In this document: one piece after another, positions 3,193-60,738 of the stretch | Layout of the letters: each line of letters opens with the position of its first letter | How positions within the stretch are numbered: the stretch's first letter is position 1 | DNA from: Octopus vulgaris | Taxonomy: Eukaryota | Direction: 5' to 3' | DNA: 64,000 nucleotides | Assembly (NCBI GenBank): GCA_951406725.2 | Contig: OX597834.1 | Span: 6,200,001-6,264,000 of the forward strand | The notes under the pieces: model-generated | Seen by the model: the letters and a program-made list of their open reading frames with translations, nothing else | Databases searched by the model: none | Told to the model about the DNA's origin: nothing | Position numbers and translations under genes: made by a program

Positions 3193-3394
3193 AATTTTGT
3201 TAGCATCTTCGTTCGACTCCATTCTTTCATTTATTTATATATATGTATATGTATATTTGGATTCGAACTCACAAGTGTAAACAAGACAGACAGAGAAAGG
3301 CAGAAACAAGGAAAATGCCACTTATATTTGAACACTATACAAATATTCTTTTAAAAAACTTTTCTTTTAATTTTTCTAAATTTAATTATTTAAT

Positions 3395-3441
3395 CGTTAC
3401 AGTTGAAAAGGTCTCAAATGACCGAAACCGGTACGGAAATG
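3395..3441 (+). ncRNA. Hammerhead-like motif with U3:A8 core and decayed stem I
   Basis: TTGAAAA-GGTC/GACC-GAAA-CCGG-TA; stem I has mismatches. Confidence 0.55.
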
Positions 3442-3534
3442 TTCTTTATAAAATTATTTTAGCATTTTCTATCTTGAGACTTGTTTTTTCATATATATCT
3501 CAACTTGTGTGTTCCTTTTCACCCTTATACATAC

Positions 3535-3586
<52 letters not shown>

Positions 3587-6452: not shown

Positions 6453-6866
6453 TTCACTGTCATACCAAGTTATGAAATCCAATATGGACATATAAGATAA
6501 ACTGGATTTTACATGGCTAAGCTGAATCAGCATAATTGATTTCATAATTTCCAACTCTGTCTTTGAGTGCTTGATATTATTCTATTTATATTTACCGAGA
6601 AAATGTGTACCATCAGATGAATAAAGTATACACAGAGAAATTAGAAGTAAAATACCGACCAAATTCACTTGTGTTTTTCTTTGCATCTTTGAACACATCA
6701 CACGGGCTGAAACATTTTTAAGGATTTTAAGGATTTATATCAGAAAAATTACACAGATTGGGAATTGAACTGTGTAAATATCATTTAGAATCTTTAAGTC
6801 CTGAGTTCAAATTACGATGAAATCGATTTTACCTTTCATCCTTTCAGGGTTGGTAAAATAAGTACC

Positions 6867-8844: not shown

Positions 8845-9428
8845 ATTTCTTATTTCTTTCCTGCCCACAAGGGGCTACACACAGAGGGGACAGACATACG
8901 GATTAAGTCGATTATATCAACCCCAGTGCGTAACTGGTACTTATTTAATCAACCCCGAAAGGATGAAAGGCAAAGTCGATCGCGGCAGAACTTGAATTCA
9001 GGACATAAAGACAGACGAAATACCTATTTCTTTATTACCCACAAGGGGCTAAACACAGAGAGGACAAACAAACGGATTAAATTGATTATATAGACCCCAG
9101 TGCGTAACTGGTACTTAATTTATCGACCCCGAAAGGATGAAAGGCAAAGTCAATCTCAGCGGAATTTGAACTCAGAACGTAGCGGCAGACGAAATACCTA
9201 TTTCTTTACTACCCACAAGGGACTAAACACAGAGGGGACAAACAAGGACAGACAAACGGATTAAGTCGATTTTATCAACCCCAGTGCATAACTGTTACTT
9301 ATTTAATCGACCTCGAAAGGATTAAAGGCAAAGTCGATCTCGGCAGAATTTGAACTCAGAACGTAACGGCAGATGAAATATTGCGAAGCATTTCGCCCGG
9401 TGTGCTAATGTTTCTGCCAGTTTGCTTC
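8845..9428 (-). mobile_element. SINE family B, tandem trimer
   Basis: One head plus three ~175-bp bodies joined at GAAATAGGTATTTCGTC. Confidence 0.9.
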
Positions 9429-11431: not shown

Positions 11432-11952
11432 TTTGGCAGAAACTTTAGCGCGCCGGGCGAAATGCTTAGCGGTATTTCGTCTGTCGTTACGTTCTGAGTT
11501 CAAATTCCACCGAGGTCGACTTTGCTTTTCATCCTTTCGGGGTCGATAAATTAAGTACCAGTTACACACTAGGGTCGATATAATCGACTTAATCCGTTTG
11601 TCTGTCCATGTTTGTCCCCTTTGTGTTTAGCCCCTTTTGGGTAATAAAGAAATTGGTATTTCATCTGCCGCTACGTTCTGAGTTCAAATTCCACCGAGGT
11701 CGACTTTGCCTTTCATCCTTTCGGGGTCGATAAATTAAGTACCAGTTACACACTAGGGTCGATATAATCGACTTAATCCGTTTGTCTGTCCATGTTTGTC
11801 CCCTTTGTGTTTAGCCCCTTTTGGGTAGTAAAGAAATAGGTATTTCGTCTGCCGCTATGTTCTGAGTTCAAATTCCACCGAGTTCGACTTTGCCTTTCAT
11901 CCTTTCGGGGTCGATAAATTAAGTACCAACTATGCACTGGGGTCAATGTAAT
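11432..11952 (+). mobile_element. SINE family B tandem multimer
   Basis: Head, two full bodies and one partial body. Confidence 0.9.
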
Positions 11953-12429
11953 CTAGCGGATGGAATGACCTCACAGGTGTTCCCCCTCAAGATCACTTTA
12001 CTCAAATATATTTATGTCCCCTCAATTAAGTGTTCTGGTACCAACTTGAAGAACTATTATCCTCATTAATTCCCACTTATATTAGTCAGTAATTTTTAAA
12101 CTCATAACTGTTATGTCTGAGAATTTTAGTCAAAGTCTTTTACCAACTCCAAAGTGTTTACTGAGATCAGGTCATTGGCAGTTAGTTGTCATAAACTCAT
12201 ATGTCCTCTGGCAACTTGGTGCTTTCGCTGTCATAAAATATCAGAATGGTAAAAGATTAAGATTACTGTCTTCGTCTCCAGCATCTCTTAGTAACGAAAA
12301 ATAATAAGTTCCATCCACGTCTACAGGAATGGTATGTCAGCAGGTTTTAATGATGGTCGAATTTGAAATGATTTAAGGGGCTTTCTTTGCTAAGATGATG
12401 AAAAAGACGATTGCAAGAATGTTGTTGCA

Positions 12430-23459: not shown

Positions 23460-23875
23460 GGCGGCGAGCTGGCAGAATCGTTAGCACGCTGGGCGAAATA
23501 CTTAGCGGTATTTTATTTGCCAGTACGTTCTGTGTTCAAATTCCGCCAAGGTCGACTTTACCTTTCATCCTTTCGGGGTCGATTAAGTAAGTACCAGTTA
23601 CGCACTGGGGTAGATATAATCGACTGAATCCATTTGTCTGTCATTGTTTGTCCTCTCCATGTTTAGCCCCTTGTGGGTAGTAAAGAAATAGGTATTTTGT
23701 CTGCCGCTACATTCTGAGTTCAAATTCCGCTGAAGTCGACTTTGCCTTTCATCCTTTCGGGGTCGATTAAATAAGTACCAGTTATGCACTGGGGTCGATA
23801 TAATCGACTTAATCCATTTGTCTGTTCTTGTTTGTGCTCTCTGTGTTTAGCCCCTTGTCGGTAGTAAAGAAACAG
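23460..23875 (+). mobile_element. SINE family B dimer
   Basis: Head GGCGGCGAGCTGGCAGAA plus two bodies; ~15-bp TSD GATACTGAAATGTTC/GATATTGAAATATTC. Confidence 0.9.
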
Positions 23876-24420
23876 ATATTGAAATATTCACAACAGACTT
23901 TTTCTATCAGCATTTTCCTTTGCACTTAACATAATAAAGGGACAGAATACATGTTTTTATTATTTCCTGACCATGTGTGAATATGTGTTTGAAGAAGTGT
24001 GATGAGGGTGGAACGGAATATTTGAAGCGAGAGAAGAGACAACCAAGAATGGAGATTGCAAACCGATACACAATGTAAAGAAGATGAAAGCTTGAGGAGA
24101 GAAAGAGAGAGAAGGGGGGAGGAAGAGAGAAAGAGAGAGAGAGGGAAAGGAAGAGAAAGTGTTTGTGTAGAAGACTCAACAAGTGCAAGAAATACTGAGA
24201 TATGGAATGTCTTGTAGTTCAGATGGCACCTTCTGATACTGGAAAAGGAACTTGCTCAAAGAATCTAGGAAGCATTTGTGCTTAAAATGGAAATATATGA
24301 AGTGGTTAGAAATACTGGAAAGAGAGAGAGAGAGAGACAAAGAGAGAGAGGATAAAGACAGAAAAAGAGAGAGGGAACGGCAGAGAAGAAGAGAAAGGGA
24401 AGAAGGAGAGATAGAGAGAA

Positions 24421-26133: not shown

Positions 26134-26178
26134 GGCCAGAGTTCTTTCGTCACACTCCTGTGACCTCATCAGTGGTCC
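26134..26178 (-). ncRNA. Minimal hammerhead with an extra G after the core
   Basis: Minus strand: GGACCA CTGATGA G GTCAC aggagt GTGAC GAAA G aa C TC TGGCC. Confidence 0.7.
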
Positions 26179-30742: not shown

Positions 30743-30809
30743 ACACATATATATATATATAAACCCTCCTTCTTCCCTTCCTTCCTGAGCATCCAATAAT
30801 ACTATATAT

Positions 30810-41867: not shown

Positions 41868-41872
<5 letters not shown>

Positions 41873-42078
41873 TAATCCAAACAAGAAAATACAAAAAAAC
41901 ACAACAACGCGAGGACGTGGAACAAATATAGTATTATTGGACGCTCAAGAAAGAAGGAAAGAAGGAGGGTTTAACGTTTCGAGCGAAGCTCTTCGTCGGA
42001 AACATAGGAGAAGGAAAGATCCAGAGAAGGGAAGACAGAGGAAAAAAAATCGCCAACGGTACACATGAGGTCACATTT
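41868..42078 (-). mobile_element. ~210-bp HHR-bearing element (family H) in (TA)n; HHR at 41969-42003
   Basis: Reverse complement of 51412-51624; GTTT CCGACGA A GAGC ttc GCTC GAAA CG TT AAAC. Confidence 0.85.
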
Positions 42079-43294: not shown

Positions 43295-44712
43295 AGTTTA
43301 ATTTCAAATTTAGAATTATTATAAAGAATTCTTTTTTTGCCTTTCGTAGTTGAACATTTTCATTGCTTATTCTGTAAAATGGGAATATTTTCACTTTTCC
43401 ATTTGCACAGATATCCAGATGTTCACTGCATGGGATATTCCTTAGAGACGAATCCCTAATTTGTTGTTTATGCTCTTTTACACAACTGCTCAGTTTCCTT
43501 CCTGTCTTCCCAATGTAGTTTTCATTGCATCGTTAAAATGTGATGCGGTAGATGAGGTTTTCTTTGTTTTGCAATTTATGTTTGCATTCACTTTTAATTC
43601 TTTCCCATTCTTGAATCTTCTGATTGTCCCTCCCCCAATTAATTCACCTGTCTCACAACGGGGCTCTTCACAGATGGTTATTTCCATCGTTTCTTTTTCA
43701 AATGTGAATCTTGCCTTTGTTAGAAGTCTCTTGATGTTAGGTGGTTGTCTTCAGCTGTTGATAATTTGTGATTTTTTAATTATTCATTGGAGATTTGGTG
43801 ATTGATATATAATTGAGAGGTGTCGTTTGGCTGAGTGCAAGATGTGGTTTCCAAGATTGTGGGTGACTACAAATAGAATATTTGTATTTGTATTTTTGTT
43901 TTCACATCTAGCCTTAGTATTTCTCCATAAGGCAGAGACTGGGATTTCCTTTGCTTTTGTTATAACATGTTGAATTAATTTGTTGGGGTATTTTTGTTCC
44001 TGAAGGAAAATATTAAGTTCTGTCAGTCATTTCTCTCATCTAAAAGTATCTGTGACTATTGAGCATATGCACTTTGCCATATTAAATTATGTGTTCTTTT
44101 TGTATAGGAAGGGTGGCAAGATCTAAAATCTACGTATTGGTGTGTGTCTATGTTTGTTTTGTATAGGTAAGTTCTAACTGTCTCATTTTCTTTAATTATC
44201 AGAATATCCAGAAAGGGGAGTTCCTTTTCGATCATTTCCATAGTGCATTAGATTAATACATGAATGCTATTTGTAAATTTAAGTAATTTTGTAAGGTCCT
44301 CCTTACTTCAGTTCCAGAATATGAAACAATCATCTAAGAATCTTTTCCAGTTTCCCATAAGATAGGTTTGGAAATGGTCAAAAGTAGTTCTGGATAGGAT
44401 GTAAATTTTTCTTCTAGGTATCTCGTTACTAGAGTTGCAAATGTTGGTGTGACTTTTGTCCCCATCACAGTGCCTTGTATTTGTAGATAATATCAGTTAT
44501 CAAAGAAGTAATTTTCCAGTACTATCTGAAAACCTTTCAGTATAAATTCTTTTGAGAATCTCTCCTGAATTCTTTGTGGTTGTTAGTTTATCCAGAATTC
44601 TACTGCCCCTAGTCTATATGTAAGGGGATTATTTGTGTAGAGACTAGTTGTGTCAAAGCTAACAAGTACTATCTCTTTATCTACCAATTCTGGTAAATGG
44701 ATTAAGATGTCC
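43295..44712 (-). pseudogene. Degraded Penelope-like element, RT and GIY-YIG
   Basis: LVSFDTTSLYTN...QIQGTVMGTK..PTFATL; KRFLDDCF; LPFLDILI...HQYVDFRSCHP; CEEPRCET..INCKT; NYIGKTG...EHLDIC. Confidence 0.9.
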
Positions 44713-44729
44713 ATGGATTAAGACGTCCA

Positions 44730-46883: not shown

Positions 46884-47412
46884 GGCGGCGAGCTGGCAGA
46901 AACGTTAGCACGCCAGGCGAAATACTTAGCGGTATTTCGTCTGTGCTTACGTTCTGAGTTCAAATTCCGTCGAGGTTGACGTTGCCTTTCATCCTTTCGG
47001 GGTCGATAAATTAAGTACCAGTTACGCACTGGGGTCGATATAATCGACTTAATCCGTTTGTCTGTCCTTGTTCGTCCCCTCTGTGTGTAGCCCCTTGTGG
47101 GTAGTAAAGATATAGATCGATTAAATAAGCACCAGTTACGCACTGGGGTCGATGTAACCAACTTTATCCGTTTGTCTGTCCTTGTTCGTCCCCTCTGTGT
47201 TTAGCTCCTTGTGGGTAGTAAAGAAATGGGTATTTCGTCTGCCGCTACGTTCTGATGTCAAATTCCGCCGAGGTCGACTTTGCCTTTCATCCTTTCGGGG
47301 TCGATAAAATAAGTACCAGTTACGCGCTGAGGTCGATGTAATCGACTTAATCCCTTTGTCTGTCCTTGTTTGCCCCCTCTGTGTTTAGACCCTTGTGGGT
47401 AGTAAAGAAATA
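46884..47412 (+). mobile_element. SINE family B multimer
   Basis: 15-bp TSD GGTATGGGAAAC(T/C)AA at 46868-46882 and 47413-47427. Confidence 0.92.
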
Positions 47413-51411: not shown

Positions 51412-51413
<2 letters not shown>

Positions 51414-51624
51414 AATGTGACCGCGTGTGCACCGTTGGCAATTTTTTTCCCTCCATCTTCCTTTCTCTGGTTCTTTCCTTTTCCTATGTTTCTGACGAAG
51501 AGCCCTGCTCGAAACGTAAAACCCTCCTTCTTCCCTTCCTTCCTGAGCCTCCAATAATACTTCATTTGTTTCACATCCTCATGTTGTTGTGTTTTCTCTT
51601 TGTGTTTTCATGTTTGGATTAACT
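51412..51624 (+). mobile_element. ~210-bp HHR-bearing element (family H) flanked by (TA)n
   Basis: Second full copy at 41868-42078; 3' fragments at 30761 and 60560. Confidence 0.85.
51488..51522 (+). ncRNA. 35-nt minimal hammerhead with an extra A and loopless palindromic stem III
   Basis: GTTT CTGACGA A GAGC cct GCTC GAAA CG TA AAAC. Confidence 0.82.
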
Positions 51625-60540: not shown

Positions 60541-60738
60541 CATATATATATATATATATAAACCCTCCTTCTTTCCTTCTTTCCTGAGCGTCCAATAATA
60601 CTATACTTGTTCCATGTCCTCGCGTTGTGTTTTCTCTTTGTGTTTTCATGTTTGGATATATATATATATGTATATATATATATATGAATATGTGTATATG
60701 TGTAGAAATATATAAATGTATATGCATATATACACATA

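Follow-up and report, generated by a model that had tools for sequence, protein, structure and literature searches.

Penelope-like elements (PLEs) of metazoans carry minimal hammerhead ribozymes (min-HHRs) in their pseudo-long terminal repeats (pLTRs), as described by Cervera and de la Pena (2014, PMC4209133). The part of that paper covered here describes these ribozymes as weak in vitro and holds neither evidence of cleavage in vivo nor an analysis of insertion ends. That PLEs have minimal hammerheads and solo motifs, target microsatellites and occur as inverted copies is already known from the covered parts of PMC4209133, PMC8557442 and PMC6765202. Other systems close to the one described here are the Anolis Poseidon element PAc (Frangieh et al. 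2024, PMC11167929), animal non-LTR (non-long-terminal-repeat) retrozymes (Li et al. 2026, bioRxiv 10.64898/2026.07.22.740005), and R2 with a 5′ hepatitis delta virus-like ribozyme, in which, according to the covered part of Eickbush et al. (2013, PMC3774820), cleavage takes place at the 5′ end and junctions vary through chance microhomology. We analysed a 64,000-nucleotide stretch of Octopus vulgaris DNA (assembly GCA_951406725.2, contig OX597834.1, positions 6,200,001 to 6,264,000; hereafter the window) that contains four copies of a short hammerhead-bearing repeat, family H, and followed the family through the genome. Family H is a PLE's 3′ pLTR that has multiplied mainly as solo copies; as an element it is an ordinary Penelope-like pLTR family. 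A minority class of its insertions begins just after the predicted ribozyme cut and belongs most often to the lineage with a GUC triplet, an observation with good statistical support. Judged from sequence, cleaved RNA acting as the template for reverse transcription appears to be the likeliest cause for this minority of copies. The literature searched, which included few subscription papers and no supplements, yielded no study that maps where PLE insertions start, across a genome, onto a hammerhead cut.

The hammerhead of family H resembles the min-HHRs in the covered part of PMC4209133 in its type I order, its 4-bp helix I, the unpaired base between positions 9 and 10.1 and the G10.1-C11.1 pair. 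A palindromic helix III region, mostly single dispersed motifs and rare copies joined to PLE coding sequence are further points of likeness. Family H differs from the ribozymes presented there in that helix II has 4 bp rather than 6-8 bp, and in the GUU triplet and the C at position 4 that most copies carry; the longer helix II is typical of the PLE type and not required, and 4 bp is the canonical size. As in PAc, the targets are AT-rich, a defined internal reverse-transcription start fixes the 3′ end and uncut RNA is probably the dominant template. The PAc ribozyme overlaps the start of its open reading frame (ORF), whereas family H has excess genomic copies starting just after the predicted cut. 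With R2, as far as the covered part of PMC3774820 describes it, family H would share a self-cleavage site that sets the template 5′ end and, as we propose, junctions varied by microhomology. R2 cleavage yields a full-length template, whereas cleavage in family H would be internal, would affect a minority and would give copies without the core and the 5′ half. The animal retrozymes in the covered part of the preprint are likewise short, non-coding and PLE-derived with a type I hammerhead, but they are head-to-tail arrays of at least two ribozyme units, whereas family H is solo with fixed 3′ ends.

Element positions are numbered from window position 51412, which places the predicted cut at 107|108. 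The first full solo pLTR copy (51412..51624, + strand, element 1-213) lies between (TA)n runs and has a CUGA core and a GUA triplet. The second (41870..42078, - strand) is 86% alike and has the CCGA core and GUU triplet of the commonest genomic form. A stem-checked scan finds the minimal type I hammerhead of the first copy at 51488..51522 (+), with the cut predicted between 51518 and 51519; that of the second lies at 41969..42003 (-), with the cut predicted between 41973 and 41972. Both follow GUUU-CYGACGA-A-GAGC-NNN-GCUC-GAAA-CG-U-H-AAAC, where H is A at 51488-51522 and U at 41969-42003. The parts of the 51488-51522 motif are stem I (GUUU/AAAC, a short helix I in the 4-5 bp range of the PLE type), the core box CUGACGA (CUGANGA in general form), an unpaired A before stem II, stem II (GAGC/GCUC, with the G10.1-C11.1 pair, as in the commonest genomic form), the second core box GAAA, and the NUH triplet. 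A palindromic ACGU occupies the 15.2-16.2 region and could allow a dimer.

Core position 4 of the 41969-42003 hammerhead is C (CCGACGA), a point absent from the initial annotation of this DNA. Genome-wide, C occupies this position in 80 of 101 scored copies, and the remaining non-CpG core positions are conserved in 591 of 595 instances. Core conservation (99.3%, against 94-95% in comparison regions) is not used as evidence because the comparison regions contain subfamily-variable columns. In an Rfam scan of the window at E<=1, with 184 matches, the 150 that were listed are microsatellite artefacts and include no hammerhead, and the fold of the whole element is no better than that of shuffles (z=0.73).

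The other two window copies are partial. One (30761..30803, +, element 108-150) begins at the predicted cut after (TA)n and is shortened at its 3′ end too, where it ends at an internal TATAT that merges with the microsatellite. The other (60560..60657, +, element 108-208) also begins at the predicted cut after (TA)n. Both open with AAACCCTCC right after the (TA)n, and their first base is element position 108, which directly follows the predicted cut. The initial annotation had located all four copies correctly, along with the two hammerheads with their predicted GUA and GUU cuts and the AAACCCTCC start of the two partial copies.

The 2.8-Gb genome contains 10,107 exact matches to a 20-base anchor. 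Because that anchor is present in only 12 of 30 copies picked by another anchor, family H, whose copies sit within (TA)n arrays, numbers roughly 25,000 of them. An unbiased sample was made of the first 90 matches to the anchor on contig C1. The 3′ end falls at position 213 in 79 of these copies, nearly all of them before a microsatellite, and has been lost at the internal TATAT in two. The 5′ start lies within -4 to +15 in 67, and (TA)4 stands immediately upstream in 54. An initiator at -3 was considered as the cause of this normal 5′ end and could not be established, since many copies extend to -5 to -10.

Start rates within the element were measured genome-wide with gapped patterns, as (TA)4-flanked starts per base per 1000 anchor-bearing copies. 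The rate is 0.72 at 40-70 (118 of 5,274), where the pyrimidine tract is like that of the plateau described below, 0.52 at 70-99 (130 of 8,313) and 0.34 at 100-107. It reaches 2.47 at 108-123 and returns to 0.56 at 124-130, and is about 0.8 at 131-161 and about 0.5 at 166-196, the denominators of these last two bins being estimates. The split within 100-130 is a hand tally of 99 + 86 distinct places, drawn from 100 of 331 and 100 of 162 listed; rows that were duplicates or already counted were dropped (1 of 100 and 14 of 100), and some ten junctions whose runs were interrupted or that had deletions were assigned by eye. The rate steps up sharply at 107|108 and then stays about 4-fold above background over a plateau of 16 bases (108-123). 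Whole-genome counts free of any tally give 236 of 5,054 at 100-130 against 118 of 5,274 at 40-70 (p=9e-12). Matched AAAC contexts on the two sides of the cut give 9 starts at 101-103 and 49 at 108-110 (p=9e-8), or 6 and 28 when the TA-microhomology class is removed (p=2e-4). The excess amounts to ~300 of 10,107 copies, about 3%, a figure that counts only clean (TA)4-flanked copies (54 of 90 in the sample). The 16-base width of the plateau is close to the scatter at the normal 5′ end, suggesting that templates have a second end, at 108, which joining has blurred. Polymerase theta, in the covered part of PMC7165422, scans up to about 15 bases for microhomology, and joining by this polymerase is a candidate cause of the spread.

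Were the plateau a product of cutting, a larger share of it would be expected from lineages whose triplet is better. The fastest hammerhead triplets are GUC and GUA in the covered part of PMC3138052. Lineages were assigned by a haplotype rule on bases 3′ of the cut that was set on ribozyme-keeping copies; seven of eight rule-positive copies are GUC. Copies starting at 108-123 were genotyped in list order, 33 for discovery and 65 held out, in numbers not exactly proportional to the two junction classes. The GUC-linked haplotype was present in 9 of the 33 and 25 of the 65, compared with 8 of 87 ribozyme-bearing controls (p=2e-5 against the held-out set) and 3 of 35 copies whose truncation falls at 40-70. 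This haplotype is thus about 4-fold enriched among plateau copies. Direct reading of the 40-70 controls gives five GUC copies in 35, and two of the three rule positives there are GUU; the rule therefore misses some GUC. The edge of the plateau is sharp, since GUC is absent from all 13 copies that start at 100-107 (p=0.009). Plateau copies are drawn from all four haplotype classes, the other three showing a 2-3-fold excess, and the plateau rates rank GUC >> GUU >= CUGA/GUA-linked, at 9.3, 1.7-1.9 and 1.4 per base per 1000.

Probably, as the genomic sequences suggest, a few percent of insertions come from self-cleaved RNA joined to its target with short trimming, which would account for the minority class that starts no more than 16 bases after the predicted cut. 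An autonomous Penelope-like protein with reverse transcriptase (RT) and GIY-YIG domains would nick (TA)n and prime reverse transcription at the 3′ end of the element. Uncut RNA would provide most templates and give near-full copies. Two hammerheads may form a dimer by way of the palindromic ACGU and cleave, most often in the GUC subfamily, a minority of the RNAs at NUH^A108. Microhomologies of 1-3 bases, lying no more than about 16-18 bases from the cDNA end, would then join the cDNA of either template to the target, and such joining would spread a single RNA end into a plateau and not a spike. Copies derived from cut RNA, which would be without the 5′ half and the ribozyme core, would be dead ends. 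The initial annotation had proposed self-cleaved RNA as the template from the two partial window copies and had predicted a sharp peak of starts at the NUH^ site. The step, the plateau and the GUC enrichment keep its proposal alive for a minority of copies; what it made of the two copies and of a sharp start was too strong.

Several results weigh against cleavage as the source of the minority class, and one concerns the missing spike. No copy in the unbiased sample starts at 106-109, and there is no single-base peak at the cut genome-wide. Position 114/115 holds more starts than 108, and single-site peaks track T/A matches (74-76, 114, 121, 149-153). The exact junction of the window copies makes up 21 of 100 among the places listed, which scales through 162 of 10,107 to a share of about 0.34% among copies that bear the anchor. 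On a par with it, at about 0.3%, stands the TAT site at 74-76, with 22-26 of 8,313 (both hand counts). A sharp peak at the cut is ruled out by the 0 of 90 and by equal peaks at other TA sites. The two window copies are weak evidence, because single-site peaks follow T/A microhomology and the exact junction is no commoner than the TAT site; neither has the GUC-linked haplotype. The caution in the initial annotation that microhomology with (TA)n might bias the breakpoint was well placed. Evenly spread 5′ ends, or equal enrichment at every TA dinucleotide of the element, were what it held would speak against its proposal. Equal peaks do occur at other TA sites, but the starts are not evenly spread, given the step at 107|108 and the ~4-fold plateau.

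Fold predictions and the lineages themselves add to these points. The predicted energy-minimum dimers are not the active fold, and predicted monomer folds hide the core or stem I in a hairpin of -7 to -9 kcal/mol that ends at 106-107. Half of the listed copies with an intact GUC (7 of 14) read AUAC after the cut, which gives a stem I mismatch, and all seven scored copies of the enriched GUC class have C at core position 4. No enrichment is seen for the CUGA-core-linked haplotype, to which the GUA copies belong (11 of 98 in the plateau against 17 of 87; 5 of 98 against 11 of 87 by a narrower rule), although good cleavage is expected of it. In PAc (PMC11167929), the single reconstituted system, the ribozyme is dispensable in vitro, uncut RNA is the main template and no RNA-seq reads end at the cut.

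The same start pattern could have a transcriptional origin. A second transcription start at A108, where a pyrimidine-A initiator in the pLTR coincides with the cut site, would yield shorter transcripts as templates; we regard this as unlikely, while giving it serious weight. The initiator consensus is YYANWYY. Copies with GUC (TCAAACC or TCATACC) and GUU (TTAAACC) fit it with the A at 108, a further point against cleavage, and there are only 1-3 matches per copy, the one at 108 being absent in the two GUA copies tested. An initiator at 108 would fit the order of the rates (GUC >> GUU >= CUGA/GUA-linked), and a mismatch in stem I would not disturb it. Such a start site would, however, have to hit exactly the base fixed by the conserved ribozyme fold, and the other YYANWYY matches (151, 162) show no separable step in the bins used.

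A second alternative, which we consider improbable, invokes no RNA cutting: reverse transcriptase would stall at the 3′ foot of the ribozyme-region hairpin, and the stalled cDNA would be joined. All variants are predicted to fold a hairpin of -6 to -8 kcal/mol ending at 106-107, as the most or second most stable local fold of the element, and modelled pairing of base 107 is 0.86 in GUC copies and 0.33 in the main GUU form. As modelled, the hairpin both hinders cleavage and offers a stall site. The stall is made less credible by the GUA copies, for which equally strong pairing through 107 is predicted (0.90, -8.0 kcal/mol; n=3) while the haplotype linked to them shows no enrichment. Weak hairpins of this kind are also normally displaced by retroelement RTs.

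Pure microhomology or composition bias with (TA)n, acting at insertion or through later deletions between microsatellites, would explain why single-site peaks follow T/A matches and why 3′ ends are lost at the internal TATAT (two of 90, and the window copy at 30761). As an account of the plateau it is already largely refuted, and we think it very improbable: the matched pyrimidine tract at 40-70 has a rate 3.4-fold below the plateau, there is a 5-fold difference between matched AAAC runs on the two sides of the cut, and microhomology cannot explain the haplotype enrichment. Least probable of all is amplification of one or a few already truncated masters starting near 108, which a GUC sub-lineage with a GTC(T/C)TTTTG tail might suggest (12 plateau copies against 5 keeping the GUC site, among 17 listed), but plateau copies fall into four haplotype classes and more than one GUC sub-lineage, all of which also occur with an intact ribozyme, and their starts vary across 108-123.

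Family H is assigned to a PLE pLTR and not to a retrozyme because of its fixed 3′ ends, the PLE remnants upstream, the head-to-head pairs and the absence of head-to-tail arrays in loci L001-L175. A few copies extend upstream. Two that do, L179 and L180, share a 1.7-kb CA-rich spacer (79%). In L180 an RT-thumb remnant lies 1.9 kb upstream on the same strand, with a tblastn match (E=7e-7) to the intact PLE protein P0001. In L179 an ORF end (PVARHF...EQRFIFNL...PHGLN) lies beyond the spacer on the same strand, and Atlas gives a weak lead (0.89) with GIY-YIG in 15% of members. We tentatively take this to be the end of a PLE endonuclease; its 64 residues found no match in Pfam, BLASTP or a homolog search, the last being a weak test with so short a query, and the assignment is not confirmed by any of them. 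In both loci family H is the 3′ neighbour of a PLE RT-GIY-YIG ORF, of which only remnants are present. No intact autonomous copy and no partial tandem pLTR-ORF-pLTR was found in 22 long stretches, three of which lay beside copies other than intended. Inverted head-to-head pairs occur at L109, L120 and L166/L167, and microsatellites are targeted, as in other PLEs. Head-to-tail arrays pointing to circular RNA were not seen in loci L001-L175, nor were the head-to-tail tandem units, each with a hammerhead, that characterise retrozymes.

Some of these loci have further features. The L166/L167 pair (G000:C3:141033320-141033436) is arranged head-to-head with (TA)n between, and both arms start in the plateau (about 119-123). 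At L311, about 6600-6830 (+) (locus L096), a family H copy directly follows a same-strand fragment that looks like the N-terminal portion of a PLE ORF; the copy either derives from an internal deletion or has inserted into a different PLE. An open 742-codon PLE frame lies at L176 8423-6198 (-), G000:C3 near 108.279 Mb, with an RT domain (Pfam RVT_1, E=1e-8) and, judged by eye, a two-cysteine linker and a GIY-YIG-like end. This PLE stands head-to-head with a family H cut-site copy in one (TA)n array and has a different pLTR of its own. As a partner for family H the intact ORF beside the cut-site copy (L164/L176) was rejected, since it is on the opposite strand and has a different pLTR at its end; it could act on family H in trans.

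The window holds other elements of related kinds. At 3314-3545 (+) lies a solo pLTR that belongs to a second PLE family and has 89.5% likeness to the 3′ end of the intact L176 PLE. It carries a minimal hammerhead-like motif with a covariant U3-A8 core and a CCGG palindrome, and offers an independent family suited to the plateau test. A decayed PLE RT/endonuclease remnant with many stops lies at 43380-44714 (-) and matches the L176 protein (tblastn E=9e-64). A lone hammerhead-like match at 26143-26176 (-), with a 5-bp stem II and a non-palindromic loop III, may be due to chance. A separate dispersed family forms partial tandems of 174-184 base units at 8851-9380, 11471-11953, 23507-23880 and 47003-47224. 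Outside the window, another short family has inserted in the upstream flanks of the family H copies L011 and L081, immediately before them; its hammerhead is similar (stem II GAGC/GCUC, GAAACGUA), with an altered stem I pair.

A wider reading of these results is possible, although we lean against it as a whole. The minimal Penelope-type hammerhead would cut in the germ line and its 5′-OH product would be retrotransposed, at a per-subfamily rate that may be readable in the genome as about 15-fold over background for GUC and 2-3-fold for the rest. Since a copy made from cut RNA is left with neither the ribozyme nor the 5′ half, cleavage would cost solo pLTRs offspring, and the dominant family would be one with a weakened ribozyme (C at position 4, GUU). 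The natural variants (GUC, GUU and GUA) are known exactly, and a single base is named at which 5′-OH versus cap chemistry would decide whether PLE minimal hammerheads cut in vivo. The test can be transferred to any genome by seeking a 16-base plateau and not a spike. If cleaved RNA is indeed the template, a step at the predicted cut that scales with the triplet would be fossil evidence of germ-line cleavage.
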